From an uncultured Methanosarcinales archaeon (lineage in GTDB: Archaea > Nanobdellota > Nanobdellia > Woesearchaeales > UBA11576), in the NCBI GenBank assembly GCA_964572875.1, contig CAZNGE010000024.1, positions 4,417 to 18,169 on the forward strand: DNA of 13,753 nucleotides, written 5' to 3'. Of this stretch, positions 1 to 12,930 are shown piece after piece. The notes under the pieces were generated by a model. It did not search any database and was not told the origin of the DNA. It saw nothing but the letters and a program-made list of their open reading frames with translations. A program made the position numbers and the translations under genes. Position 1 is the stretch's first letter. Each line of letters starts with the position of its first letter.

Positions 1-44
1 TACAGGCAGCATTGACGCTGCACTAATGTCACAAGGTGATCGGG

Positions 45-632
45 ATGAGCGAGAGAAGCAGAACAGCATATGGACAGTCAAAAAAGCAGGGTGGTAGAGG
101 AGCGAAGAAGAAGGATTCGCAGTATGATGAGAAGGTGAAGAGGATCCTGCGTGAGATGGGGCTTGAGCCGGATGAGGAAGAAGATGACCAGTTCCTGCTC
201 GGCGGGGCCATGCCTATGTATGGCGAAAGTATGAATATGCCGCTGATGGCTGGCGGGTACTCCGGAATGCAGGGCGGGCTTGAGAGGAGCATGGCGCCTG
301 CGTACAGCATACCTCCATCAATGATGGATGGCAGCAGAGCTCAGGGCCACAATGCAATTCAGCAGAGGCCTGTGCAGATGCCATACCAGGGCGATGGCAA
401 GACCTGCGCTGTGAACATACAGTATGCAGCAGCAGACGGCACGATGTACCAGATGAGCATGGTCACGCCAGAGCAGAACAAAGCAAAAGGCCTGCAGAAC
501 ATGCTCGCAGGGCTGTACTGCATGATGATGTCAGAAGGAGACAAGGGATATGCAGGCAGCAGCGCATACAAGCCTGGCAGGGCAGGCAAAGGAGCCGGGA
601 AGGCGTACGCAGGAGGCAAAGGCGGGAAATAG
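45..632 (+). CDS. Hypothetical Met/Gly/Ala/Tyr-rich low-complexity protein (about 195 aa)
   Basis: The ORF track gives 36..632 from GTG. The ATG at 45 follows AGGTGA (34-39) at SD-like spacing, so I prefer 45. Stop is TAG at 630-632. The product has a basic N-terminus, a DEEEDD patch, MxM-rich low-complexity sequence and a GK-rich tail. No family recognised. Confidence 0.6.
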   Translation: MSERSRTAYGQSKKQGGRGAKKKDSQYDEKVKRILREMGLEPDEEEDDQFLLGGAMPMYGESMNMPLMAGGYSGMQGGLERSMAPAYSIPPSMMDGSRAQGHNAIQQRPVQMPYQGDGKTCAVNIQYAAADGTMYQMSMVTPEQNKAKGLQNMLAGLYCMMMSEGDKGYAGSSAYKPGRAGKGAGKAYAGGKGGK

Positions 633-797: not shown

Positions 798-846
798 CAT
801 CAAATCTATCTGCCAATCTATTGATAGAGGTGTGGGGGAATCAGTC

Positions 847-2808
847 ATGACCGGCAAGGATTCAGATCCTTTGAGCACTCTTGATGAGCTGACAGAGCAG
901 CTCGATGAAGAGAAGAGGCAGCATGAGAACTACGCTCACCAGATAGCAGAACGCATGGAGCAGCTCCAGCAGAGGCGCAATGAGATAGCCAAGCTGAGGC
1001 AGGAAGTGGCACCCCTGATTTCTGAACGAGAGAAGTATGCCCAGGGCATAAAGGACATACATGAAGAGGAACGGACTGCAGAGCGGGAGGAAAAGGTCCT
1101 TGAGAACGAGCTCACCGAAAGGAGGCAGAGATACCACGGCATAGCGCAGCAGATAAAGAACACTGAGAAAAGCCGCGAGGACGAGATAAGCAAAGCAGAA
1201 GAGGAAAGACAATCAGAGATCGCAGCCATCAACGAGAAATACGACAACAGGATCACAGACGTAAAGAAGACAGCAGAGGCTGAGATAGCCCAGCTGCAAG
1301 AAGGCCGCAGGAAGATGGTCGGGCCGACAAAGGAGATGGTCCGGAAATACAAAGACAAGAAAGACGAGCACAGCGAACTTGCGCAGCAGCGCAGGGAAAA
1401 GGAAAAGGACCTCATAGAATCAACCAAGATGATAAGCGCCTGCCTCGGGCAGATAGAGGAGCACAGGAAATACATAAAGGATAACTCGCTTGAGAATTTC
1501 CTGAAGAGCATAAGGCCGAAAGACATGGCACTCGATCCAGCACCTTCTGACGAGGAGATAGTCCAGCTGTACGACGGGGATCCTGCAGGAATTCCCGAGG
1601 ACATGCAGCTCCCCGAGCCAGAGACCATAAGGTCGGGCACAGGGCTTGAAGGCCTTGACATCATGGACTACAAGCCGGAAGGTGCTGCTGAAGAGGCTGA
1701 TGCAGATACCGATAGTCTCGAAGAGCTGGAGCAGCAGCTGGATGAAGAGGATGATGAAGATGTCTCCTTCCTCAACATAGATGATGCTGACCTCGACGCT
1801 GTAGTGGATATACCGCATGAAGAGGACCATGGAGAGATGAATACCCTGCTTGATGAGATATCAGACGAGCACAAGGCTCTTGTCGAGACGGCTGCCCAGA
1901 ATTCTCTCGGGCCTGAGAACGGCAAGAAACAAGCATCTGCTGGATCATACTCAGTACAGAATCCTGAACAGAAAGAGGATGTGGGCGATGTGATTTACCT
2001 TGATGATGGCAAAGAAAAACAGGCAAAAGACAGCGCAGTAATAGGCAAGATGGGCATCAAGCGGGTCCCTGACAAGAGCAAAGAGCTCCATGAAGGCGCA
2101 AGCGACCTGGAGAAGGCTGTGGCAGACATCCACGGATGGAGATACTCGACAGAGAGGGGGCTCGGCAGAGCATCGATACAATACACCGGACAGGGCGAGG
2201 ACAAAGAGCCGCACAGGATGATCGAATGCTTTGACATGAGCCTAATAAGCCTGATGCTGGACAGCGCAGAGAAGATGCTCAATGAGGCGGCAAAGTTCCC
2301 TGAAGTCATAGATGAAGAGAATGTCGTGCTGAACGAGGACAACATAGACTATCTTTCCAAGAAGTCAGAGGAGTTCAAGACATCCTATGTCGCGCTGACA
2401 GGGACTGTTGAGACGGTCATCAGGCTCTACGCGCCGCAACTCAACAAGGTGATATCTGAATACATGAAGCATGAGGAAGACATGGACGACAGCATCCTGG
2501 ACGATGCAGAGCTCGACAGGGAGAAGAGCATGATGCTGCACCCTGAGATGACGAGGAAGCTTGAGCAGACAATCCTTAAGGACATCCTCAATGAACACCA
2601 GGTCAAAAACATGTTCCTGGCCAATCTCGTAGATGTCAGCGAGGGGCCGCAATACCTCAGCGAGATAGAACTCAACAGGCTGGTCAGCGATCTCAGGGAC
2701 ACAAAGAAATACCTTGAAGCTACCATGACCCAAGAAGAATGGGAGAAGGCGGTCTCGGGAGTGGCCTACGCATTCACACAGAAAGGATGCGAGATAATCA
2801 CCCCTTAA
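847..2808 (+). CDS. Hypothetical large acidic coiled-coil protein (about 653 aa)
   Basis: The ORF track starts at GTG 832. The first ATG at 847 follows purine-rich GAGGTGTGGGGGA. The N-terminal ~230 aa are E/K/R/Q-rich and heptad-like, the centre is a D/E-rich tract, and the C-terminal ~200 aa look more globular. Stop is TAA at 2806-2808. No enzymatic motif seen. Confidence 0.75.
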   Translation: MTGKDSDPLSTLDELTEQLDEEKRQHENYAHQIAERMEQLQQRRNEIAKLRQEVAPLISEREKYAQGIKDIHEEERTAEREEKVLENELTERRQRYHGIAQQIKNTEKSREDEISKAEEERQSEIAAINEKYDNRITDVKKTAEAEIAQLQEGRRKMVGPTKEMVRKYKDKKDEHSELAQQRREKEKDLIESTKMISACLGQIEEHRKYIKDNSLENFLKSIRPKDMALDPAPSDEEIVQLYDGDPAGIPEDMQLPEPETIRSGTGLEGLDIMDYKPEGAAEEADADTDSLEELEQQLDEEDDEDVSFLNIDDADLDAVVDIPHEEDHGEMNTLLDEISDEHKALVETAAQNSLGPENGKKQASAGSYSVQNPEQKEDVGDVIYLDDGKEKQAKDSAVIGKMGIKRVPDKSKELHEGASDLEKAVADIHGWRYSTERGLGRASIQYTGQGEDKEPHRMIECFDMSLISLMLDSAEKMLNEAAKFPEVIDEENVVLNEDNIDYLSKKSEEFKTSYVALTGTVETVIRLYAPQLNKVISEYMKHEEDMDDSILDDAELDREKSMMLHPEMTRKLEQTILKDILNEHQVKNMFLANLVDVSEGPQYLSEIELNRLVSDLRDTKKYLEATMTQEEWEKAVSGVAYAFTQKGCEIITP

Positions 2809-2810
2809 TT

Positions 2811-3332
2811 TCATATCTCATAGATGCTGTAGCTTGTTCCCATCACCGAAACGCTCCTCTCAGGGCGCAGTGTGAGAGGGCGGAAGATGTTGTCAACGAT
2901 GACTATCCTGCCCCTGAATCCTTCTACAAGCCTCTTCTCCAGCCTATGGAAATAATTGTCAGGGTTGATGAATATGAAGTCATACTGAGAAAGGTCCTCC
3001 CCGAGATAATCCATGTTCTTGAGCACGAAGTCCATGCCCAGCCTCTGCCTTATCTCCTCAGCATCCCTGTGGAGCAGCTCATCCGACTCTATTCCTACGG
3101 CCTTTGTGAAGAGACTCGCTACCGCGACCACTACACCGTCGCCGGATCCGAGATCGACAAAGCTCTTATGCTTCTGGAGTTCCAGCTTCCTGAAAAGCTC
3201 ATAGAGCTGGAGCGGGTCTGACATCGCCCAGTACCCCCTGCCCGTCTGCCTCTGCGACCTGCCTTCAAGGATCAGCCTGCTGCGCCTCCTTGCATAAGCC
3301 TGCCTTATGGTCTCGAACCTTCCGTGCTGCAT
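2811..3332 (-). CDS. Small class I SAM-dependent methyltransferase (173 aa)
   Basis: Motif I is VDLGSGDGVVV, an acidic residue ends beta2 (VGIESD), and DFIFINPDNYF resembles motif IV. An Arg-rich 36-aa N-terminal extension is present. An AT-rich TATA-like element lies ~23-35 nt upstream and there is no SD. Confidence 0.75.
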   Translation of the reverse strand: MQHGRFETIRQAYARRRSRLILEGRSQRQTGRGYWAMSDPLQLYELFRKLELQKHKSFVDLGSGDGVVVAVASLFTKAVGIESDELLHRDAEEIRQRLGMDFVLKNMDYLGEDLSQYDFIFINPDNYFHRLEKRLVEGFRGRIVIVDNIFRPLTLRPERSVSVMGTSYSIYEI

Positions 3333-3378: not shown

Positions 3379-3411
3379 AAAAAGAATATCACAAGCAGTG
3401 GCAGCGCTGCC
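3379..3411 (-). terminator. Palindrome GGCAGCGCTGCC followed on the minus strand by T5; terminator candidate for the five-gene operon
   Basis: A perfect 12-nt palindrome (3400-3411) begins 8 nt after the TAA stop at 3419-3421. A plus-strand A5 run at 3379-3383 is T5 on the minus strand. Confidence 0.45.
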
Positions 3412-3418
3412 TATCTGA

Positions 3419-4246
3419 TTATCTGGTCGATAATATGCCCTTAACGACCTCGATGAAGTCATGCGCCTCTTTCCTGTAGCGGTCATAATGGTCGCCCGGC
3501 ACGCGCTGGACCTCGCCTGACATCAGCATCTTCCCTATGTTCATGAACTCGCTCACCAAAGATATGTAGCGCTTGTCAAGTATCCCTTTCGCAACAAGAT
3601 GATGCTTCATCAATGGTATGAGATGGTCAGGGGTGTCAGGCACTATTCCATGCCTAAGCAATGCGGAATGCGCAGCGTCGAAAACAGCCCAGTGCAGGTC
3701 GATGACTGCCTGCCTCATGTTCCAGTGCGCGTTCGAGACAGACATCGGCCCTCTCGCGAGATATATCCACACTATCTCCTTACCAGGCCGTATCTTCTGC
3801 GAAGCGAGCATCTTCTTGGCCATGCCGAAGCAGCCCTTGTCATACACAGCGGTGCCGTCGCGCAGCATGTTTATCAGGATAGGATCCCCCTTGAGCGAGT
3901 AGTCCCAGAACTTGGTCAAAGGCATGGTGGTTATGTGAAGCCTTCGCGAGACCTTCGCGGCACTCCTCTCTGTCACGATGCGATACGCAGTTATCACCTC
4001 AGAGTTCATCACATTGACCATGTCATCGAATATTATCAGGACATCAATGTCGCTGCCTGAAAGTATCTCCTCTCTCAGGTCAGTCTTTCCCGGAGCGAAA
4101 CCTCCGCGAACCGCAGAGCCGAACCAGACGACAGACTTGACAAGGATGCCCAGCTCCTTCACCATCTCTTTCGAGAAGCGCTTGACAATGTCCTCTATCT
4201 CGCCAGGCTTTGCGATGTACTCCCTTGTGGTTGTCCTGAAATTCAT
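3419..4246 (-). CDS. Fused minimal nucleotidyltransferase (Pol-beta superfamily) plus HEPN-like helical domain, catalytic motifs intact (275 aa)
   Basis: WFGSAVRGG...SGSDIDVLIIFDD is the MNT-type G-S...D-x-D signature. The C-terminal half (AVIDLHWAVFDAAHSALLRHGIVPDTPDHL...) looks like a HEPN or KNTase C-domain helical bundle with no obvious R-x4-6-H RNase motif. AGAGGAGAAAG sits directly upstream of the ATG. Confidence 0.75.
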   Translation of the reverse strand: MNFRTTTREYIAKPGEIEDIVKRFSKEMVKELGILVKSVVWFGSAVRGGFAPGKTDLREEILSGSDIDVLIIFDDMVNVMNSEVITAYRIVTERSAAKVSRRLHITTMPLTKFWDYSLKGDPILINMLRDGTAVYDKGCFGMAKKMLASQKIRPGKEIVWIYLARGPMSVSNAHWNMRQAVIDLHWAVFDAAHSALLRHGIVPDTPDHLIPLMKHHLVAKGILDKRYISLVSEFMNIGKMLMSGEVQRVPGDHYDRYRKEAHDFIEVVKGILSTR

Positions 4247-4294
4247 CTTTCTCCTCTTTTCCTGTTTCCTTCTGTGAATCTTATGATATTAACA

Positions 4295-6325
4295 CTATTC
4301 CAATGGCACGCCGCTCCAGAACACCCAGTCATCTGTCGGCCTGTACGCTCCGACGACATACGGCGGCGGGTTGACATGCCCGAAATAAGTCTCTGAGACG
4401 TCAGACCACCTGGTGGCAGCAGGCGCAGCCGTGAAATAGCTGTCAGCGATCTCAGAGCCGAAAGCGCGCCAGGTCTGCAATAGTATCCTGCCTTTGCCGA
4501 ACTGCTCCTCCTCATGACCCTCTGATATGACCGCTCCTGTGAAACCATTCTTCTTCAGGTGATCGACAGCCTCGACAACAGGGAATATTCCCTGTCCTGC
4601 AGGAAGATGGCCGTGCGCGCCTGTAGCTGAATCCACAGCCTGCACGCTGCCTATGACCTTCTCCTTCTGCATCCTGTCTGTCATGTCCAGGAACCACGTG
4701 TTGAACCTCTCAAGACGAGCCTTCTCTGTCTCACGGGGATGCTCCTTCTTGAAATGCTGGAGCCACATGCCCAGGTGGGACGTGTCGAGGCAGCCCTGGA
4801 TGTGCCGCTCTGCAGTCTCTTTTGCCTCGTCTTTTGCGAATCCTCTCTCCTTGACAAGGCGCTCTGCCATCTCCTTCCTAGAAAGCTTGATCAGTTCAGT
4901 GAACTCCTCGGGATGACCGCCGTAAGCACCAGGCCATCCCAGCTCAGGGCCGACATGGATAGGCCTCTCGACATTAGGGTTCTGGTTGGTCTCGTCAAGC
5001 GCAGCGAGCCCTGCCTCTGCATAGGACTTGACTGACTGCTTCTTGGCGAACTTACTCATCGATTGCACCTTGTCCATGGTCAGCTCTATCTCTGCAGCCT
5101 GCGCATCTGATGCGGCTGATGCCTCATGCACGTGCTTGAGATGGTGCTGGAGACCCTCTATGCTTTCCTCGATTATCTCGCTCGGCTTCTTGTATTCAGA
5201 AGGTATGAACTCCCCTCCCCTGACATGGCGTATAGAAGGGTCCTCCTTCATGAGCTTCCACACCTCCTCTTTAGGTATGGACTCCTCAAGCTTCCTGTAA
5301 TACTTCAAAGCGTCCTGCAGGGCCTTATACTGTCTGGCCTCTATCTGATACTGCCCTGTGTAGAACAATGAATGGCCTCTTGCCTGGAGCCACTTATTCT
5401 CCATGTTGAGGCGGAACGCATACTCTGCAGGATCATAATTCTCGCCATAACGCTCATTGAACTGGTTGGTCCTCTCCACTATCTTCTCCCAAGGCACAGG
5501 ATTCGACTTGAACTTCTTGTTGACAGGATCCCATTCAGGAACTCGCTGGAGAAGCTCCTCCTTCTTGGTGGGATCGATCCACCTGCCGTCAAAATCCAGC
5601 CAGTCGCCTTTCCTGATATCCACAGGATTGCCATGCCTGTCAAGACCCTTTATGTCCTTCTCTGCAACCCTGTACTCAGGCTCGAAGATGTCAGAAGAGT
5701 GCTTTATGGCCTCGTGGATCTGGCCGGTCCTCACGTCGACAAGATATTCTGTGGCGTACTGGTCCTCCTGCTCATACGCCTCGAACTTGCCTGCCCACGG
5801 GCCTTTCTTGTTCCAGGACGCGTCCACGATGCCGCGGTGGAACTCCTGTGACCAGATGTCCACTCCGCCTCCTCCTGCGATGTCGCCGAGGAAACGTATC
5901 GCGTCCTTGACCTCGCGCAGGTCATCCTGCCTCTTCTGCTCTGATATGTGGCCGCGCTGCGGGTCAAAACCAGACATATTGGTCATGGAAGACGCGGGCA
6001 TCTCCAGACCCTCAATCATCACGTTGTTGGCGCGCGTGAGCTCGCGCAGGCTCTCCCTTGCCTCAGAGCCGTATGCCTTTGCCCTACCGCCCATCGGGCT
6101 CGTCGTAGGGACAGACATGACTATCTGCATCTTGCTCGCGCCCTCACGGATGGCCGCCTCGACGTTCTGGATTATATGGCCTCCTGTAACAGGATGCTTC
6201 TCAGGCACAGTCACGCCTATCTCATCCACCGCGAGAATCGGCTTCTCGAGCTTAGGCTGCTCCCTCAGCGGCGTGAAAGTTTCCCTGTCCATGGCCGAAT
6301 AGTAAGGCCCTGAGCTGAACTGCAT
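4295..6325 (-). CDS. Very large xylose-isomerase-like / AP-endonuclease-2 fold TIM-barrel protein with a large internal insertion (676 aa from ATG 6325)
   Basis: The C-terminal part has GCLDTSHLGMW (D-x-x-H), VQAVDSATGAHGHLPAGQGIFP (H..PG.G) and AVISEGHEE (terminal Glu). The N-terminal part has GGGGVDIWSQEF. The ORF stays open to 6352, but ATG 6323-6325 sits 1 nt after the upstream TAA and follows GGGAGGT. Confidence 0.65.
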   Translation of the reverse strand: MQFSSGPYYSAMDRETFTPLREQPKLEKPILAVDEIGVTVPEKHPVTGGHIIQNVEAAIREGASKMQIVMSVPTTSPMGGRAKAYGSEARESLRELTRANNVMIEGLEMPASSMTNMSGFDPQRGHISEQKRQDDLREVKDAIRFLGDIAGGGGVDIWSQEFHRGIVDASWNKKGPWAGKFEAYEQEDQYATEYLVDVRTGQIHEAIKHSSDIFEPEYRVAEKDIKGLDRHGNPVDIRKGDWLDFDGRWIDPTKKEELLQRVPEWDPVNKKFKSNPVPWEKIVERTNQFNERYGENYDPAEYAFRLNMENKWLQARGHSLFYTGQYQIEARQYKALQDALKYYRKLEESIPKEEVWKLMKEDPSIRHVRGGEFIPSEYKKPSEIIEESIEGLQHHLKHVHEASAASDAQAAEIELTMDKVQSMSKFAKKQSVKSYAEAGLAALDETNQNPNVERPIHVGPELGWPGAYGGHPEEFTELIKLSRKEMAERLVKERGFAKDEAKETAERHIQGCLDTSHLGMWLQHFKKEHPRETEKARLERFNTWFLDMTDRMQKEKVIGSVQAVDSATGAHGHLPAGQGIFPVVEAVDHLKKNGFTGAVISEGHEEEQFGKGRILLQTWRAFGSEIADSYFTAAPAATRWSDVSETYFGHVNPPPYVVGAYRPTDDWVFWSGVPLE

Positions 6326-6326
6326 C

Positions 6327-7136
6327 TTAACGCGAGACCTCCCTGTCCACATGCTCCTTCACGAAATCACCTATCTCCTTGAGGAAAAAATCAGCATCAG
6401 CGAGATACGAGTCGAACTCCCTGCCCGATATCTCGAACACCTCCTTGTGCATTATCCGCTTGGCAGCGTCATAGAAGCGATCCACTATGTCCGCGCACCT
6501 GCGATGCACGAGGTTCCGCGCCACCAACTCCTTCCTGACAGCCTCAGCAAGATGCTTCGGCGACGGAGGGGTCAGGCCTGCGACCATGACTGCCGCGTGC
6601 GCTGCGTCCATCACAGCCCAGTAAAGGTCTATCACAGCCCTGCCCACCTTCTGGTTAGAGGCCTTCAACGAGCGCTCTGCCTTGACAAAATACACATTGA
6701 CGCTCTCCTTTGACGGTCTTATCTTCCCTGTGACCAGCAGGTCCTGGAGAGGAAGGAAGAAGCCGTTGTCATGCACCACAAGCCCATCCCGGGCAAGCTG
6801 CATCACATCGTCGTCACGCGACCTGAAACCCTCCCAGAACGCAGAAGCGAGCATGGCTTCGCACTTGAGCGGAAGAGTGCTCTCATACGCCATGTCAGAT
6901 GCGGAGATGCGGAACTCCTCTACCTGAGGATCGAATATCAGTGAGTTGAGGTCGTCAAGGATAAACACCATCTCGAGAAGGTTCCTCGACTCTGAAGGCC
7001 GCTTCAGTAATACAGAAGATATGGTCTTCCCGTGCTCCTGAAGTGCCTTTTCCGCAAAAGCGCGCACATCCCTGTACCTCTGTTCTGTAAGGTGATCTGC
7101 GTTATGCGGCTTTTTCCTCTCAAGCTTGTCTTCCAT
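6327..7136 (-). CDS. Paralog of the 3419..4246 NTase-HEPN protein with a degenerate nucleotidyltransferase active site (269 aa)
   Basis: Clear collinear similarity to the 275-aa protein: ARDGLVVHDNGFF vs LRDGTAVYDKGCF, GKIRPSKE vs GKIRPGKE, AVIDLYWAVMDAAHAAV vs AVIDLHWAVFDAAHSAL. However, FGS is replaced by LKR and SDIDVLII by LLEMVFIL. The same AGAGGAGAAAG RBS lies upstream. Confidence 0.7.
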   Translation of the reverse strand: MEDKLERKKPHNADHLTEQRYRDVRAFAEKALQEHGKTISSVLLKRPSESRNLLEMVFILDDLNSLIFDPQVEEFRISASDMAYESTLPLKCEAMLASAFWEGFRSRDDDVMQLARDGLVVHDNGFFLPLQDLLVTGKIRPSKESVNVYFVKAERSLKASNQKVGRAVIDLYWAVMDAAHAAVMVAGLTPPSPKHLAEAVRKELVARNLVHRRCADIVDRFYDAAKRIMHKEVFEISGREFDSYLADADFFLKEIGDFVKEHVDREVSR

Positions 7137-7151
7137 TTCCTTTCTCCTCTA

Positions 7152-7706
7152 TCATGGATGGAACCATTCCATCTTGTAGCCAAGGGACCTCAGCAGGTGC
7201 ATCGAGCTGACCACGCTCTCGACAAGCTCCTCTGACGGGGTCGAGTACAGGTCCTTGTCAGGCGAGTTCTGCATGCTCTGCTTGACGACATCATATGCCT
7301 GCCTTGCGTTCTCATACACCTCGAGGAACTCATCCCTCGTCGGGGTTCTGCTGTCCTGCGCATACCATCCCTGGATCTCCTCCAGGGTGTTCTGCGGAAG
7401 GAGCTCCTGTATGCGCCTGCCATAGTCAGCGCCTCCCTTCTCTATCCTCTTGATGTCCGATTCATTGATCTGCGCCTCGATGTCCTTGGACTGCTCGAAC
7501 AGCTTGTCTATATTCACCTGGTCCTGCTTCGGCACGTCTATCTCCTGCAGCATCTCGTCTATCTTTATCTCCTTGAGCGAATCCTCTATTATCTTGCGGG
7601 CCTCGAGCTCCTCCCTCTTCCTCTTCTCCTCGAGCGCCTTCAGCCTAGCGAGACGTTCCTTGGGAGGGAGTTTCCTTATCTTCTCAAGCTCTTTCTCATC
7701 TACCAT
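7152..7706 (-). CDS. Hypothetical protein, charged coiled-coil N-terminus (184 aa)
   Basis: Its start ATG overlaps the upstream stop (ATGGTAG, 7700-7706). K/E/R-rich helix-like N-terminal half, C-terminal ~80 aa unrecognised. Stop is TGA at 7152-7154. Confidence 0.7.
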   Translation of the reverse strand: MVDEKELEKIRKLPPKERLARLKALEEKRKREELEARKIIEDSLKEIKIDEMLQEIDVPKQDQVNIDKLFEQSKDIEAQINESDIKRIEKGGADYGRRIQELLPQNTLEEIQGWYAQDSRTPTRDEFLEVYENARQAYDVVKQSMQNSPDKDLYSTPSEELVESVVSSMHLLRSLGYKMEWFHP

Positions 7707-9166
7707 GTCGCCATCCTGTACATCTTCTTGAAATTCTTGTAAGCGTTATAGAGCACGAACTCCATAGCACCTATCGCCGCGCCCCTGTCCTTGTCCTTCT
7801 GCCAATCGCTCTTCTCACCCTTGGACCTCTTCTTCATGCTCGGAAGCAGGGGCCCGAATATCTCCTTGAAGCCTCCGAAAATCGCGAGGAAGGGCTCGGC
7901 AGTCTCCTTCAGTCCTTCCATCGCCTTCTTGGCCGCGACCTGCTTCTCCTCTTTCTCTTTTATGTCTTCTGGAAACTCCTCACCTGCCTGCTTGAGGTAG
8001 TCGCGCAGGTCATCACCCAAAGCCTCTATTGACTCCTTCAGCGAAACATCAATGTCTCCCAGGATGTCCATCACCTCTTCCTCGCGCATCCGGAGATAGT
8101 TCTTCCGCTCCTCATCCGACCAGGCATAACCCCTCAATGTGAACTCTGTCCTGCCCACATGGACCGGACCCTTGTGCTGGTAGCCTTCCTGATGGTATTC
8201 CATCCTCGGACTTGTCCTGTAGACCATGTTCATCACTATTATCGGCTGGTAAAACGAACCAGGCAACGGCCTGCTGAACATGACCTCTATCTCGGTCACG
8301 CTGCCCTCGAAAGCTCCGATTATGTCCTCACTGATCGTCTTCTCAAAGTTCTGGGAGAGACGCCGGACATTGCGCAGGTACGGCTTGACCCAGTTGATGT
8401 ACATCTGGATAGAATTGTAATGCTGCCTGAGGAACTTCAGGGTGAAGCGATGCCGGTTCTTGAGCTCCTTGTGCGTATGCTCTTTCCAGACGATGAACGC
8501 CTGCAATTTGTTCTTCAGCACGTTCTTGAGCTTCAGGTTGAACCTAAGGCTGTTGACATAGCTGTCGACCTCGCCTTTCTTCATAGGCGGCGCTGCAAAG
8601 AACAGGTCAGGAAGCGCAGTGTATCCCAAAGTGCTCGCGAGACCGTAAACAGAGCCGGGCGACTTCACTCCTCCGTCCTTCAGGTCGACCCAATAGCTCC
8701 TCAGCACGATCTCCGCCGACTGGCTGGTCTTCCTCGCATTGACAGAGTCCTGCTTCTCTATCGCCTTCTCACTCGCCGTGTAAAGGTCAAGCCTCTCATC
8801 AAGAATCCTCAGCTCTCGCACTATCTGGAACAGCTCCTTTGTCAGCTTGCCTATCGTGGCGAGATAGTTCGAGACCTGCCCCTGCTGGATCGACAGGCGC
8901 TGCTGGGCCTGGCCCCAGAACGCAGACTGCTCTGAAGCAGTGAATATGTCGGTTATCTTGGTCGCCTCGTGGAAGCCGAAATCATCCCGTATCTGGTTCA
9001 GCAGGAAGAAATAATGCGCCTCTACAGACTGGTTGAACACCTCGCGCACCATCCTGAGAGTGTGGACTGCCTCAGGCACGTTCTTTATCGGGACAGGATC
9101 AGACCCTCTTGTCCGCTCCTGCATCTCCCATTCCCTGAATCCGAAATCCTTGCAGTCTATTGCCAT
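7700..9166 (-). CDS. Hypothetical protein, first gene of the operon (488 aa), no recognisable family
   Basis: Long ORF with codon usage like its neighbours and AAGGAAAAG upstream of the ATG. It has helical or coiled segments, a central mixed region and a basic, amphipathic-looking C-terminal tail (FLAIFGGFKEIFGPLLPSMKKRSKG...). No Walker, nuclease or other motif noticed. Confidence 0.7.
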   Translation of the reverse strand: MAIDCKDFGFREWEMQERTRGSDPVPIKNVPEAVHTLRMVREVFNQSVEAHYFFLLNQIRDDFGFHEATKITDIFTASEQSAFWGQAQQRLSIQQGQVSNYLATIGKLTKELFQIVRELRILDERLDLYTASEKAIEKQDSVNARKTSQSAEIVLRSYWVDLKDGGVKSPGSVYGLASTLGYTALPDLFFAAPPMKKGEVDSYVNSLRFNLKLKNVLKNKLQAFIVWKEHTHKELKNRHRFTLKFLRQHYNSIQMYINWVKPYLRNVRRLSQNFEKTISEDIIGAFEGSVTEIEVMFSRPLPGSFYQPIIVMNMVYRTSPRMEYHQEGYQHKGPVHVGRTEFTLRGYAWSDEERKNYLRMREEEVMDILGDIDVSLKESIEALGDDLRDYLKQAGEEFPEDIKEKEEKQVAAKKAMEGLKETAEPFLAIFGGFKEIFGPLLPSMKKRSKGEKSDWQKDKDRGAAIGAMEFVLYNAYKNFKKMYRMATW

Positions 9167-9190
9167 TTTCTTTTCCTTATATCTATAGTC

Positions 9191-9216
9191 AATGCTTAAA
9201 TATGTTTATAAGCATT
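9191..9216 (-). promoter_or_regulatory. Operon promoter: TATA-like CTTATAAAC (minus strand, 9204-9212) embedded in the inverted repeat AATGCTTA-N10-TAAGCATT
   Basis: The TATA-like box is ~38 nt upstream of ATG 9166. Perfect 8-bp inverted-repeat arms lie at 9191-9198 and 9209-9216. Confidence 0.45.
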
Positions 9217-9267
9217 ATGGTATTCTTACCGACGATTATGTGACATCAGTGTCCTGACCTGTCCTAA

Positions 9268-9531
9268 TCACCTCTTGTAAAGCACGACCACGAAACCGAC
9301 CTGGTCGATGATGTCTGATGATGTCGCCTTTGCAAGCTCTTTCGCAGCGGCCTTCCGGTCACTGGACTCCAAAAAAGACCTGAGGAACTTGACCTTGACA
9401 AGCTTCCTCTTCTGCAGGAGACTCTTCACCTGCATTATGGCGTTGTCGGTCAGGCCGTTCTTGCCTATCCTGACCAGCGGCTCCATGAGCCTTGCCTTGC
9501 TCTTCAGCATCTTGGTGTTGTCTATCACCAT
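9268..9531 (-). CDS. yhbY: YhbY/CRS1 (CRM domain) family RNA-binding protein (87 aa)
   Basis: The size and the pattern LKSKARLMEPLVRIGKNGLTDNAI...LVKVKF...IDQVGFVVVLYKR match the YhbY signature (IGKxGLT, KVK, LYR/K). Confidence 0.8.
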   Translation of the reverse strand: MVIDNTKMLKSKARLMEPLVRIGKNGLTDNAIMQVKSLLQKRKLVKVKFLRSFLESSDRKAAAKELAKATSSDIIDQVGFVVVLYKR

Positions 9532-9544
9532 GTTATTGCCCTGT

Positions 9545-11242
9545 TCATGCTGTCACGTGCGTGGGATGCTCGTGGCCAACATTCTTCCTCTGCAGCAGGT
9601 CGTCGATGTGCCTGTACTTGACCATAAGCATCCTGAGCTGGTTTGCCTCGAAATCAGGCAGCATGCTCGAGACCATGTCCCCGCCGAGGAAATGCGGAAG
9701 TATGACATAGTCAGCACCCATCTTATAGAGCTCAAGCGCCTGGTCTATCTTGTGCGCAGTGACTATCATCGGTATGTAGTTGTTGAGCGCCTTTATCTTC
9801 TGGAGCAGCAGCAGGTTGTCCTTGTATGATGTCGCGGTCGAGATCAGCATCCTTGTCTTCTTTATGTCAAGCCTTGCAAGTATCTCGGGGTCGCATATGT
9901 CCCCGTACATGCATGGCACACCCATGTTCTTCAGCTTCTTTATCCGGTCAGGATTGAAATCCACGACAAGGACATTCTTCTTCTGCGCGACCAACGTGTT
10001 CAGGATGCTGTATCCTATGCGGTCATAGCCGCAGAGTATCACGTCATAGAACAGCTTGTGGCTACACATCGGGCCGTGATGGCCTATCCTGAAACCGAGC
10101 ATCTTGAGGAAATCGATGAAATACCTGTACATCCTTGACTCGTAATTCATGATATATGACGTCAATGTCATGGTTATGACCGCGAGCATGATAGTGAGCG
10201 TGAGGATGCCCTGTGGGATTGCGCCGGAATTCACTCCCAGGAGGACTATTATCAGGGAGAACTCCGATATCTGCGCCAATGATGACGCAGTGATGAATGA
10301 TGTCCTGGGCTGGTGCCTCATGCCCAGGAGCGCGAAGAATATGACCAGCATCTTGACGAATACCGCGAGCAGCAGCAGGAGCAGGAGTACGGGCAGCGCG
10401 AGAGGCGTGAAGCCCTTGAACGTGAACTGGAGACCCAGCGACGTGAAGAACATTATCGAGAAGAAGTCCCTCAGAGGCCCTACTTTCCCGACTATCTCTA
10501 TGTTGTACGGCAGGTTGGCGAGGAGCACGCCTGCGAAGAACGCACCTATGGTTATCGAAAGGCCTATCGCGCTGAATATGAGCGCGAAAAGGAAGCAGAC
10601 GCTCAGCGAGACTATAAGCAGGAGCTCCCGGGACTTGGCAGCGAACTCGAACACATGAGGGAACACGTACCTGCTTGCAAGGATGCCTGCCAGGATCACA
10701 AGCAGTATCTTGACGAAGAAGAAATAGCCTATCGCGCCATTCGAGACTGACGCCAGGTACGATAATGCCATTATCGCGAATATGTCCTGCACGACCAGGA
10801 TGCCTATGGTCAGCCTGCCGTGGAGGGTGTTGGTCTCGAGCTTGTCAGACAGTATCTTTATCACGATCATGGTGCTGCTGAACGCTATGACCAGCCCGAG
10901 ATAGATGGATTCCACTGAGTCGAAACCGAGGAGCTTTGTCACGAAATAGCCTGCAGCGAACACCAGCAGCATCTCTATGCTTCCGACTGCTGTAGATACT
11001 ATCCCAATGTCCTTGAGCTTCTTGAACTCCAGCTCAAGCCCGACGATGAAGAGCAGGAACGCTATCCCTATCTCACTCAGGTTCATGATGAGGTCATGGT
11101 TCGTGACGAGACCGAAGACATTGCCTATCAGGATGCCTGCTATTATGTACGCAGGTACAAGGGGCTGCTTGGCGAGCTTCGCCAGATAGGTCGCTAGACC
11201 CGCGAAGATCACCAGCATCCCGATCTCGAAAAATATGTCCAT
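9545..11242 (-). CDS. CPA2-family (Kef-type) monovalent cation:proton antiporter with C-terminal RCK/TrkA-N domain (565 aa)
   Basis: A multi-pass hydrophobic N-terminal ~390 aa begins MDIFFEIGMLVIFAGL...QPLVPAYIIAGILIG. The C-terminal Rossmann-like domain reads VILCGYDRIGYSILNTLVAQKKNVLVVDFNPDRIKKL. An in-frame stop lies 3 codons upstream of the ATG. Confidence 0.85.
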   Translation of the reverse strand: MDIFFEIGMLVIFAGLATYLAKLAKQPLVPAYIIAGILIGNVFGLVTNHDLIMNLSEIGIAFLLFIVGLELEFKKLKDIGIVSTAVGSIEMLLVFAAGYFVTKLLGFDSVESIYLGLVIAFSSTMIVIKILSDKLETNTLHGRLTIGILVVQDIFAIMALSYLASVSNGAIGYFFFVKILLVILAGILASRYVFPHVFEFAAKSRELLLIVSLSVCFLFALIFSAIGLSITIGAFFAGVLLANLPYNIEIVGKVGPLRDFFSIMFFTSLGLQFTFKGFTPLALPVLLLLLLLAVFVKMLVIFFALLGMRHQPRTSFITASSLAQISEFSLIIVLLGVNSGAIPQGILTLTIMLAVITMTLTSYIMNYESRMYRYFIDFLKMLGFRIGHHGPMCSHKLFYDVILCGYDRIGYSILNTLVAQKKNVLVVDFNPDRIKKLKNMGVPCMYGDICDPEILARLDIKKTRMLISTATSYKDNLLLLQKIKALNNYIPMIVTAHKIDQALELYKMGADYVILPHFLGGDMVSSMLPDFEANQLRMLMVKYRHIDDLLQRKNVGHEHPTHVTA

Positions 11243-11382: not shown

Positions 11383-11541
11383 TCATCTAGCCTTTCCATT
11401 CTCCCTCAGCTTCAGAAGTATGTTGCCCTGCTGGTCCAGCTCTATCTTTATGCTGGAGCCTTTCTTCCAGCCCTTCGCGTCGATCAGGGCCTTAGGCAGG
11501 GTTATCTTGTATTGCTTGTTGTTGTCGAACTGCAGCTTCAC
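11383..11541 (-). CDS. AbrB/SpoVT (swapped-hairpin) family DNA-binding protein, 52 aa, absent from the ORF track
   Basis: My translation of the minus strand gives (V/M)KLQFDNNKQYKITLPKALIDAKGWKKGSSIKIELDQQGNILLKLRENGKAR, stop TGA at 11383-11385. The ITLPKAL...GWKKGSxIxIE pattern is typical of the SpoVT-AbrB domain. Start is GTG (11539-11541) or the adjacent TTG (11542-11544), with an in-frame TGA just upstream. Confidence 0.65.
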   Translation of the reverse strand: MKLQFDNNKQYKITLPKALIDAKGWKKGSSIKIELDQQGNILLKLRENGKAR

Positions 11542-11892: not shown

Positions 11893-11909
11893 AGAAAAAT
11901 TTATAAACC
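11893..11909 (+). promoter_or_regulatory. BRE/TATA promoter AGAAAaATTTATAAACC for the 11932 gene (leaderless arrangement)
   Basis: TTTATAAA (11900-11907) ends 24 nt before ATG 11932, with no SD in between. It is near-identical to 723-739. Confidence 0.6.
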
Positions 11910-11931: not shown

Positions 11932-12930
11932 ATGAAAAACCAGATATTCGTGCCGACAGTCGCAGAGTTCTCTGATGATATACACACCAGTCTTGAGCTG
12001 CAGGAACCGCTGGTTGGGGCAGGATACACACCAGGGCTCATGCTTGTCATCAGGAACGGCAGGAAAGGCGTGACCCTGGATTCTGTAGTGCAGAAGCAGA
12101 AATCGAACCTGGAACGGGTCACTGATTACAACGGCCCTATAATCACCATGCTCTCAAACATACCCATTGAAGAGATTGATTTCCTGCATAATCCTGAATA
12201 TGCTACTGAACATGTCAAGAGAGGGATAGACTTCACAAGGACGCTGCTGATGGGCGACAGGAGAATAGTTACGTTCCATCTGAACTCATTGGTGACTGCA
12301 GAAGAATTCTGCCGGAAAGACCGGGCGGAATGGATGGAAGATTTCAAGTGGATTGTCCAGCCCGCACTTCAGGATGTCGCAAGATACGCAAAAACAAACG
12401 GGGTGGAGGTCAAGGTCGAGACAGTTCCTGTCCCTGAATTCGGGGACATACCTTCTGATGATGAAAGATCATATAGAGGAGTGAAGTGGAACGAGCTAAG
12501 GAACCCATTCTACCTTACAGCACACTGGGGCTTCAAGCAGGTACGTGATGCAGGACTCGGCATCTGCCTGGACCTATGCCATAGCAAGACAATCTATGAC
12601 ATCGCAAGGCTCGGCGACCATGACAATGTGCTGCACAGGGAAGACAGGGATGCACTGTCGGAGAGGCAGCTCTTTGAAGACGTCAGGGCAATCAGGGAAG
12701 GTGATATCGCGCACGTAAATGACGGCGCAGGAACATTCTCGACACAGCACCAGACAGTCCATAAGGAAGACCTTGCCCTTGGAGCGGGCGAGATAGTTGA
12801 CCTGCCCGACATCATAAGATATATGGACCAGAACAAGATAGCCTATGTCCTCGAGATCGGCGAGACAGACTTCAAGAACAGGCCCAATATGAAACAGTCA
12901 GTGGATTATGTACTTTCTAATTGTGCTTGA
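11932..12930 (+). CDS. Xylose-isomerase-like TIM-barrel protein with endonuclease-IV-like metal-ligand pattern (332 aa)
   Basis: The motifs appear in the order of the AP_endonuc_2 superfamily: VTFHLNS, VKVETVP, GICLDLCHS, IAHVNDGAGTFS...HKEDLALGAGEI, YVLEIGE. The H-x-N-D segment resembles Nfo as I recall it. Confidence 0.7.
   Translation: MKNQIFVPTVAEFSDDIHTSLELQEPLVGAGYTPGLMLVIRNGRKGVTLDSVVQKQKSNLERVTDYNGPIITMLSNIPIEEIDFLHNPEYATEHVKRGIDFTRTLLMGDRRIVTFHLNSLVTAEEFCRKDRAEWMEDFKWIVQPALQDVARYAKTNGVEVKVETVPVPEFGDIPSDDERSYRGVKWNELRNPFYLTAHWGFKQVRDAGLGICLDLCHSKTIYDIARLGDHDNVLHREDRDALSERQLFEDVRAIREGDIAHVNDGAGTFSTQHQTVHKEDLALGAGEIVDLPDIIRYMDQNKIAYVLEIGETDFKNRPNMKQSVDYVLSNCA

Follow-up and report, generated by a model that had tools for sequence, protein, structure and literature searches.

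The protein MJ1311 of Methanocaldococcus jannaschii is a triosephosphate isomerase (TIM) barrel protein which resembles both D-tagatose 3-epimerase and endonuclease IV and whose own function is uncharacterized. It reportedly retains the nine zinc ligands of endonuclease IV and is without the DNA-binding groove. MJ1311 has also been tabulated as a predicted endonuclease-IV homolog of M. jannaschii (PMC2770678). In MntA/HepT, a minimal Pol-beta-type nucleotidyltransferase (NTase) is combined with a HEPN/UPF0332-type domain. Proteins showing likeness to both are encoded together in a five-gene operon on the minus strand of a stretch of archaeal DNA of 13,753 nucleotides (nt), referred to here as the window (GenBank assembly GCA_964572875.1, contig CAZNGE010000024.1, positions 4,417 to 18,169 of the forward strand), which is deposited under the name of an uncultured Methanosarcinales archaeon and placed by GTDB in the Woesearchaeales (UBA11576). 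This region looks like a Woesearchaeota-specific chromosomal housekeeping operon, that is, lineage-wide machinery and not a defence island. Woesearchaeota are among the most widespread of the DPANN archaea and have small genomes, and to our knowledge none has been grown in pure culture.

The five genes are given below in order of transcription, with positions counted from the first letter of the window and products named by their length in amino acids (aa). Their limits follow the open reading frame (ORF) listing and, for the 676-aa gene, also the N-termini of homologs.

7700–9166, minus strand, gene of the 488-aa anchor protein
7152–7706, minus strand, gene of the 184-aa acidic coiled-coil protein
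6327–7136, minus strand, gene of the 269-aa catalytically dead NTase paralog
4295–6325, minus strand, gene of the 676-aa TIM-barrel protein
3419–4246, minus strand, gene of the 275-aa Pol-beta-type NTase, predicted to be active

The mechanical ORF of the 676-aa gene extends to 6352, with the ATG at 6325 being favored as homologs start with MQF or MEF. A preliminary description of this DNA, made from its letters, had reported five minus-strand genes with four close junctions, all of which were reproduced exactly. The 488-aa and 184-aa genes overlap by 7 nt (ATGGTAG), the 184-aa and 269-aa genes are separated by 15 nt, the 269-aa and 676-aa genes meet as TAA-g-ATG with a gap of 1 nt, and 48 nt lie between the 676-aa and 275-aa genes. 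All five products are predicted to be soluble, with a hydrophobic stretch of transmembrane strength in none of them. An identical 488-aa protein was found on JGI 3300031699 Ga0315535_1001679 and on a Logan contig from SRR9700626.

The 488-aa and 184-aa proteins had both been described as orphans, a label which neither of them retains. More than 1,934 homologs of the 488-aa protein were detected (E ≤ 0.001, 90%-identity database), and a full HMMER scan of 1.84 billion representatives gave 719 clusters at 50% identity, with every one of the 150 matches listed being a clear family member. With one genome scanned per species, relatives were present in 418 GTDB species. The named homologs belong to Woesearchaeota or Nanoarchaeota, save for a few bins named Methanosarcinales, Aminicenantes, Nitrosarchaeum and Thermoproteota, which are probably mis-assigned; among ten of the lowest-scoring full-length matches the named ones are still Woesearchaeota. 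The best 120 homologs are 42–100% identical to the 488-aa protein, and a Pfam domain was found in only one of them. Pfam scans of the unusually long homologs likewise gave a sole find, a small zinc ribbon in the linker of one. No informative match to the 488-aa protein was obtained in scans of Pfam, NCBIfam, PHROGs and PADLOC, its family profile gave no match in the PDB at E ≤ 10, a Foldseek search of its structural model against the PDB and BFVD returned nothing at E ≤ 0.001, and IMG/VR held no relative of the family. This is a family without detectable relatives in Pfam, PDB, BFVD or IMG/VR.

To survey the neighborhood of this gene, ORFs were called in 87 loci and searched with iterated profiles of every window protein. 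Layouts were counted in the 46 GTDB species loci with at least 5 kb 3′ of the 488-aa gene, on the same strand and within 5 kb. A TIM-barrel gene was found in 41 of these and a 184-like gene in 40, while an NTase gene was present in 20 and a DOT1-like methyltransferase gene in 17. The exact five-gene layout (184-NTase-TIM-NTase after the 488-aa gene) was seen in 8 of the 46 loci, none of which falls outside the clade closest to the window. In a further arrangement, found in 5 loci, the order is 488-676-184, showing that the linkage of the three genes survives rearrangement. The median distance from the 488-aa gene to the 184-like gene is 5.5 nt (20 nt or less in 39/58 loci) and from the latter to the TIM-barrel gene 2 nt (26/37 loci), compared with 51 nt from the TIM-barrel gene to the NTase gene (5/26 loci) and 92 nt from yhbY, the gene 5′ of the operon, to the 488-aa gene (4/38 loci). 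From these distances it follows that the evolutionary unit is the translationally coupled trio 488-184-676, with the NTase being an accessory whose duplication is clade-specific. Of the self-contained five-gene operon first proposed, it is thus the trio that is widely conserved and not the full five-gene layout.

The reading which is favored here, if only tentatively, is that the trio represents a housekeeping complex in which a catalytic metal-dependent TIM barrel acts with two partner proteins. The coupling of their genes suggests that the 488-aa, 184-aa and 676-aa proteins would form one cytoplasmic complex.

The assignment of the 676-aa protein to the TIM barrels of the xylose isomerase/endonuclease IV fold, already made on inspection, is well founded. 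It matches PF01261 (AP_endonuc_2) with 36.8 bits against a gathering threshold of 31.1 at residues 506–611, and this match was present in nearly all of its homologs. A model made with AlphaFold2 (AF2) from a 41-sequence alignment (pLDDT 82.9, pTM 0.78) shows eight barrel strands at residues 36–41, 65–69, 103–108, 153–158, 456–461, 511–514, 558–562 and 598–601. The top matches of this model in a Foldseek search against the PDB were ketose 3-epimerases (probability 1.0), with endonuclease IV at rank 15. Between strands β4 and β5 lies an insertion of approximately 290 residues (about 165–455), which consists of a β-rich subdomain (about 181–277) and the stalk helices 299–349, 381–418 and 423–448. 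The C-terminal tail (626–662) is conserved in sequence and of low model confidence. The approximately 50 residues of this tail (window 4295–4450) are aromatic-rich, with the pattern FG..PP.Y..G.Y.PS..W.LWS.VPLE and an invariant final Glu, and by its sequence the tail looks like a partner-docking peptide.

Within the 676-aa family, E161, R164, E461, H471, E474, D514 and H517 are invariant and H573 and E602 nearly so. The conserved acidic and His residues lie mostly at or just past the C-termini of strands, where E108, W158, E461, D514, Q562 and E602 are also placed, the geometry of the active site having been deduced from strand ends and conservation and not from model coordinates. The protein is very probably a metalloenzyme. 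Its only clear solved sequence relative is MJ1311 (PDB 3wqo; profile E 3e-6). Two subfamilies could be distinguished among the 41 TIM-barrel sequences. Subfamily B, with seven sequences, carries the motifs SVHVP or THA, VVHTGE, APEN, DTGH, HxHLTDN-GYDDEH-x3-GxG and EPG. Subfamily A, with 34 sequences including that of the window, keeps E461, D514, H517, H573 and E602 together with the invariant E161, R164, H471 and E474. The two subfamilies do not differ in their place within the operon, an example being P0207 and P0075, which lie on one contig.

In E. coli endonuclease IV (Nfo) the nine zinc ligands are H69, H109, E145, D179, H182, H216, D229, H231 and E261. The equivalents in the window protein are E108, W158, E461, D514, H517, Q562, H571, H573 and E602, five of the nine being unchanged; in this comparison an alignment of insertion-free cores with MAFFT aligned only β7 (H216, D229, H231), and the first five positions were matched on motifs by eye. 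An hhalign comparison of the TIM-barrel family with Nfo gave a probability of 0.5%. The 676-aa protein was also considered as an endonuclease IV proper, a candidate which fails both on the nine-ligand set and on detectable homology to Nfo. Judged from these motifs, the enzyme very probably descends from an MJ1311/endonuclease-IV-like ancestor, with the metal site remodelled in most lineages. It would represent an unusual form of enzyme, with a metal site of the endonuclease-IV/MJ1311 type in a barrel interrupted by a stalk module of approximately 290 residues. With the ancestral ligand set retained in one clade and remodelled in another, the family also provides a natural experiment that could show the role of this branch of the superfamily, including MJ1311.

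The structural matches raise the possibility of a sugar or metabolite pathway, in which the TIM barrel would be a ketose or sugar-phosphate isomerase/epimerase, the NTase would activate or tag a small molecule in the manner of nucleotide-sugar synthesis and the 488-aa protein would be an enzyme of new fold. The Foldseek matches at the top are D-psicose and D-tagatose 3-epimerases (probability 1.0), with weak profile matches to the PDB pointing the same way, and public sources label the 676-aa protein as "sugar phosphate isomerase/epimerase". For a putative metal site of the ketose-epimerase type, placed by strand positions, E461, D514 and E602 are invariant or nearly so, and the His expected there is found in subfamily B, with Gln562 at this position in subfamily A. 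The many invariant polar residues of the 488-aa protein are enzyme-like, and the nearest solved sequence relative of the NTase, kanamycin nucleotidyltransferase, acts on a small molecule. However, the neighborhood contains no conserved sugar kinase, transporter or other carbohydrate gene, a soluble isomerase of metabolism would not usually have a stalk insertion of approximately 290 residues or a disordered tail that is conserved, and the 184-aa partner is a poorly conserved coiled coil and not an enzyme. The β7 loop motif (D/H-x-H-x3-G-x-G) is moreover like that of MJ1311 and endonuclease IV. As far as is known, ketose epimerases have a shorter β7 loop. A sugar or metabolite pathway is on balance rather unlikely.

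The anchor protein itself is highly conserved, with 49 invariant and 64 nearly invariant columns among 41 diverse members, the invariant polar residues including K70, D73, E79, S81, R90, Q94, Q95, H249 and H336. Its AF2 model (mean pLDDT 76.5, pTM 0.52) shows a seven-stranded β-sheet made of N-terminal strands (13–76) and C-terminal strands (290–349), two helices of approximately 60 residues between the sheet segments (82–138 and 211–272) and a helical C-terminal region. Residues 211–270 are conserved and carry a net charge of +13. The C-terminus is also conserved, with a hydrophobic stretch PFxxxFxGFxExF followed by a Lys-rich linker and an amphipathic helix YKNFKKAHxMxxW ending in Trp. The highest Kyte-Doolittle average over 19 residues is 1.19, and the protein is without a transmembrane segment. 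In segments 77–85, 274–287 and 324–331 the sequence is conserved although the confidence of the model is low. Periplasmic adaptor proteins, CapZ, Cyt toxins and START domains were considered as possible relatives and were rejected, the likeness found by Foldseek being non-significant.

These features could also be read as those of a membrane-peripheral or filament-forming scaffold carrying the other products. The 488-aa protein is very conserved for a non-enzyme (42–85% identity, 49 invariant columns), its model has long helical hairpins, its C-terminus can be read as similar to the sequences by which bacterial division proteins are targeted to the membrane, and Foldseek shows a weak likeness to periplasmic adaptor proteins, CapZ and Cyt toxins, in which a β-sheet is combined with helical hairpins. 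Those structural matches are not significant, however (E > 0.001, TM-score < 0.35), no part of the protein spans a membrane, and a scaffold would leave both the pairing with a metalloenzyme and the many invariant polar residues unexplained. Such a role is judged to be unlikely.

The 184-aa family was detected in 72 of the 87 loci. Its mean column identity is 27%, being variable outside an N-terminal helix, KKLsPEERIkrLKelEE, and Tyr95. Scans of Pfam, NCBIfam, PHROGs and PADLOC gave nothing useful for this protein. It is acidic with an isoelectric point (pI) of 4.9, as is the 676-aa TIM barrel with a pI of 5.6. A reading of the N-terminal helix as similar to an ESCRT MIT-interacting motif (MIM) was dropped since its register does not fit the MIM1 consensus. 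Tyr95 is nearly invariant within an otherwise variable linker and is a possible target of modification, such as nucleotidylation by the NTase encoded nearby.

Returning to the favored reading of a housekeeping complex, the TIM barrel would be its catalytic subunit, a divalent-metal enzyme from the MJ1311/endonuclease-IV-like branch which probably carries out phosphoester or sugar-phosphate chemistry at the remodelled metal site. Its two partners, of 488 and 184 aa, probably have no catalytic role and are expected to dock on the helical stalk or the C-terminal tail and to hold or present the substrate. Nucleic acid or another polyanion would be the most likely kind of substrate. This is favored because of the basic helical region of the 488-aa protein, and the leaning towards nucleic acid is also due to the endonuclease-IV-like ancestry of the site, the Pol-beta-type NTase and the RNA-related neighbors yhbY and an NFACT gene. 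In the models, the conserved segments of low confidence (676-aa 626–662; 488-aa 77–85, 274–287 and 324–331) are possible sites which fold on binding. About 40% of lineages add the NTase, which probably transfers nucleotides to the substrate of the complex or to one of its subunits, and in the clade of the window the active copy and the maintained dead copy probably pair as a heterodimer.

Several points weigh against this reading. We infer the physical association of the trio only from the coupling of the genes, and the linkage is strong and not absolute: a 184-like gene without a TIM barrel within 5 kb was seen in 5/46 loci, a TIM barrel without a detected 184-like gene in 6/46, and neither partner gene adjoins that of the most divergent TIM-barrel relative. 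Synteny extends to a Na+/H+ exchanger gene, yhbY and the NFACT gene, and part of it is perhaps inherited gene order. On the model, a small-molecule substrate would be equally compatible with the TIM-barrel fold, with the best Foldseek matches being sugar epimerases, and the 488-aa protein, given its many invariant polar residues, could itself be an enzyme. In the subfamily of the window, four positions of the endonuclease-IV type are replaced (H to E108, H to W158, H to Q562 and D to H571), and endonuclease IV was not reached by sequence searches with the family profile (E ≤ 1) or with P0210 of subfamily B (E ≤ 10).

A more specific form of the complex would be a Woesearchaeota-specific machine for the end-processing or modification of nucleic acids. 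Here a TIM-barrel phosphoesterase derived from endonuclease IV, placed on a helical stalk, would be held by the 488-aa protein as a nucleic-acid-binding subunit of new fold and by the coiled-coil protein as an adaptor, and a heterodimer of active and dead NTases would extend or tag the processed end, or nucleotidylate Tyr95 of the 184-aa protein as a switch. If true, these archaea with reduced genomes would have a means of their own, specific to the lineage, of repairing RNA or DNA or of maturing RNA. Such a machine is regarded as improbable.

It was also considered that the genes may have no joint function and be neighbors merely through inherited Woesearchaeota gene order, with the exchanger, yhbY, NFACT and DOT1-like genes likewise being syntenic over long evolutionary distances. 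Against this, the genes of the trio overlap or are 2–6 nt apart while the flanking syntenic genes have gaps the size of promoters, the linkage is kept in the rearranged order 488-676-184, and the genomes compared are only 42–47% identical in the very conserved 488-aa protein. At such divergence, unselected gene order is normally lost. Mere adjacency is very unlikely to account for the trio.

The 269-aa and 275-aa proteins are paralogs (28% identity, E 3e-36). The 275-aa protein matches PF01909 (E 1.3e-6, 29.1 bits against a cut-off of 21) and has intact FGS and DIDVL motifs, whereas the 269-aa protein gave no match to PF01909 and has neither FGS nor DxD. A helical C-terminal domain with likeness to HEPN/UPF0332 is common to both. 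Every single-copy NTase, like those of the 275-aa type, retains FGS and DIDxL. In copies of the 269-aa type, found only in the clade of the window, the motifs were lost in 4/4 genomes examined and yet the copies are 52–63% identical to each other, from which it follows that they are maintained pseudo-enzymes. A Pfam scan of 25 members of the NTase family gave NTP_transf_2 and Polbeta in 20 and DNA_pol_B_palm in 10. The HEPN domain PF05168 was matched by 0/25 at E ≤ 1, and the only match to the HEPN clan was a marginal one to PF18735 (HEPN_RiboL-PSP) in one member (E 0.15). The JGI label for the homologs is "predicted nucleotidyltransferase/UPF0332 family", with UPF0332 being the COG name for a HEPN group. 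In the C-terminal half, D183, W186, D190, H193, P203, P206 and G251 are invariant columns; the Rx4-6H RNase motif is not conserved there, with no conserved Arg found 5–7 residues before a conserved His. By its sequence, the C-terminal domain is weakly supported as HEPN and would at most be of a non-catalytic kind. The earlier view of the pair as an active and a degenerate NTase-HEPN protein thus holds for the NTase motifs and is in doubt for the HEPN part.

A defence or toxin-antitoxin module, also suggested in the preliminary description, in which an MntA-type NTase would control a HEPN toxin or a TIM-barrel nuclease against invading nucleic acid, would suit the NTase plus UPF0332/HEPN-like architecture, the similarity of the NTase domain to PDC-S09, a candidate family of PADLOC (E 1.6e-6), and the origin of the TIM barrel in the endonuclease-IV-like branch, but is extremely unlikely given that the core genes are found in 418 species representatives of one lineage at 42–85% identity and at a fixed site by the Na+/H+ exchanger gene and yhbY, that the anchor is absent from viral contigs (IMG/VR), that PADLOC-DB 2.0 gave no system-level match, with the TIM barrel and the 184-aa and 269-aa proteins matching nothing in it and the 488-aa protein giving only a chance-level Cas8e match (E 0.0023), that the HEPN-like domain has no Rx4-6H and is fused to the NTase instead of being a separate toxin gene, and that within the module conservation is lowest for the NTase (20/46 loci).

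In one lineage that has no TIM barrel beside the 184-like gene, the gene that follows codes for another kind of NTase, in which a helix-turn-helix is fused to a Pol-beta-type domain (L081, 12059–12658), and NTases may associate repeatedly with this locus.

The signals predicted at the two ends of the unit are the following.

9205–9246, minus strand, promoter region with an ATGTCAC motif, a spacer of approximately 24 nt and ccATAATGcTTATAAA, a box resembling a B recognition element and TATA box (BRE/TATA-like box)
3379–3414, minus strand, probable end of the unit with the GC-rich palindrome GCAGCGCTGC followed by TTCTTTTT

A TATA-like box within an inverted repeat had been noted in front of the operon. 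The repeat, AATGCTTA-N10-TAAGCATT with TTATAAA inside, lies at 9191–9216 and overlaps the 3′ part of the promoter region. A composite motif of ATGTCAC-N(about 24)-ccATAATGTTTATAAAC was found once per locus at 60–110 nt 5′ of the 488-aa gene in 10 loci belonging to the clade of the window, and in the window the pattern was observed once versus 0 expected by chance. The TATA part can therefore be read as a conserved promoter, together with the ATGTCAC upstream of it; the downstream arm of the repeat showed no conservation in relatives. The sigma-70 promoter scan was inapplicable as the host is an archaeon. The ATGTCAC heptamer (9240–9246, minus strand) lies approximately 24 nt 5′ of the TATA box, is at the same position in L008, L010, L012, L013, L014, L017 and L050 and may be a candidate transcription-factor site controlling the operon.

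The palindrome and T5 run described after the unit are indeed present (GCAGCGCTGC, then T5, at 3379–3411) and were picked up by the terminator scan. Six terminator-like sites were found in the region compared with 4.5 ± 2.0 in shuffled sequences, a number not above chance, and the site is in this respect not distinctive. In relatives, T-rich stretches and GC-rich repeats occur at the equivalent place 3′ of the NTase gene. In close relatives the NTase start codon overlaps the TIM-barrel stop codon or follows it by approximately 10–20 nt, and the DOT1-like gene further downstream has its own conserved (A/T)TTAATAA box in relatives. The operon boundaries first drawn are supported by this adjoining of NTase and TIM-barrel genes, by the T-rich sequence after the NTase and by the box of the DOT1-like gene. 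A single tightly packed transcription unit is likewise consistent with the conserved promoter 5′ of the 488-aa gene, the coupling across species and the separate box of the DOT1-like gene. It should also be noted that in L010, L013, L017 and L008 inserts of 150–250 nt between the NTase and DOT1-like genes are bracketed by GC-rich repeats, for example GCAGCAGCGCCACCGCC, whose two copies are either inverted or direct. These paired repeats resemble a small repeat or an element similar to a miniature inverted-repeat transposable element (MITE), and the single palindrome of the window (3391–3414) is possibly a remnant of it.

Upstream of the operon, a Kef-type Na+/H+ exchanger gene (with a TrkA-N domain) and yhbY (window 9268–11242, minus strand) are 13 nt apart, with a median distance of 1.5 nt in 30 Woesearchaeota loci. 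This pair directly 5′ of the operon represents an unexpectedly tight and conserved coupling of a transporter gene with the gene of a ribosome-assembly RNA-binding protein. Downstream, the DOT1-like methyltransferase gene (window 2811–3332, minus strand; PF08123 E 6e-7) also gave a weak match to an archaeal protein-lysine methyltransferase model and may be functionally linked to the operon. A second TIM-barrel gene (11932–12930, plus strand) encodes a xylose-isomerase-like protein of ordinary size (332 aa) with a PF01261 match below the gathering threshold (E 8e-6) and with DLCH and HVND motifs reminiscent of endonuclease IV. This gene has its own TTTATAAA box at 11900–11907. Paralogy of this protein to the 676-aa protein could not be detected, and the gene was found in 0/80 GTDB species loci, the sole match (L001) being a copy of the contig of the window. 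Between this gene and the exchanger gene lies a low-GC (0.37) intergenic stretch with a 52-aa ORF (about 11383–11541, minus strand, inferred from L001 7626–7784) which gave a weak match to the MazE/AbrB-type PF04014. No RNA families or tRNAs were found in the window.

At the other end of the window, a 198-aa protein of low complexity, with abundant Gly, Met, Tyr and Gln, is encoded at 36–632 (plus strand), convergent to the operon, and is conserved in 10 loci. A very acidic (pI 4.6) 658-aa coiled-coil protein, encoded at 832–2808 (plus strand), was found in only 2 loci. Neither protein has a Pfam match, and two TTTATAAA boxes lie between their genes (698–737). A 654-aa neighbor in L004 was considered as a relative of the 658-aa protein and proved to be unrelated.

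In line with the preliminary description, this combination of genes could be mapped to no known pathway or defence system in scans of Pfam, NCBIfam, PHROGs and PADLOC or in the literature. No paper was found joining Woesearchaeota with xylose isomerase-like proteins, and the module is not treated in the literature on lineage-specific archaeal protein families. A conserved trio with such a conserved anchor protein is likely to be central to the biology of Woesearchaeota and represents a target for experimental work. For annotation, the locus indicates that NTase-plus-HEPN-like proteins should not automatically be taken as toxin-antitoxin or defence elements.

Among described proteins, MJ1311 is the best solved match to the C-terminal third of the 676-aa family, reaching E 8e-7 with P0210 of subfamily B, and the two have the β7 motif HxHxxDN-GYDDEH-x3-GxGN in common. 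This match spans only approximately 55 residues and, unlike the 676-aa protein, MJ1311 has 293 aa, with neither the insertion nor the conserved C-terminal tail. Endonuclease IV (E. coli Nfo) belongs to the same fold superfamily (PF01261), and all nine of its metal ligands have motif-level equivalents in subfamily B; it differs from the 676-aa protein in having no stalk insertion and no dedicated partner proteins. The ketose 3-epimerases for D-psicose and D-tagatose are the best structural matches to the barrel (TM-score on target 0.38–0.62, E 1e-3 to 1e-2, identity 7–13%), and their Glu-Asp-His-Glu metal site resembles the arrangement of acidic and His residues at the ends of strands 5–8 of the 676-aa protein. 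They are, however, proteins of approximately 290 aa with no insertion and no partner genes.

For the NTases, kanamycin nucleotidyltransferase was the best PDB match of the 275-aa protein, a marginal one (E 0.024) covering only the N-terminal 60 residues. This enzyme and the fused archaeal NTase-HEPN proteins (COG1708 plus COG2250/UPF0332) have approximately 255–275 aa with a GS/DxD NTase domain followed by a helical domain, as found here. Unlike the known fused NTases, the family of the operon is apparently restricted to Woesearchaeota, lies in an operon with unrelated proteins and in one clade comprises an active and a dead copy. The combination of domains is also that of MntA/HepT, which consists of two genes, whereas the NTase of the operon is one fused chain of 265–275 aa without Rx4-6H. 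MntA/HepT is scattered in many copies, while for the NTase described here the number of copies is between zero and two, at a fixed position within an operon found across the lineage.

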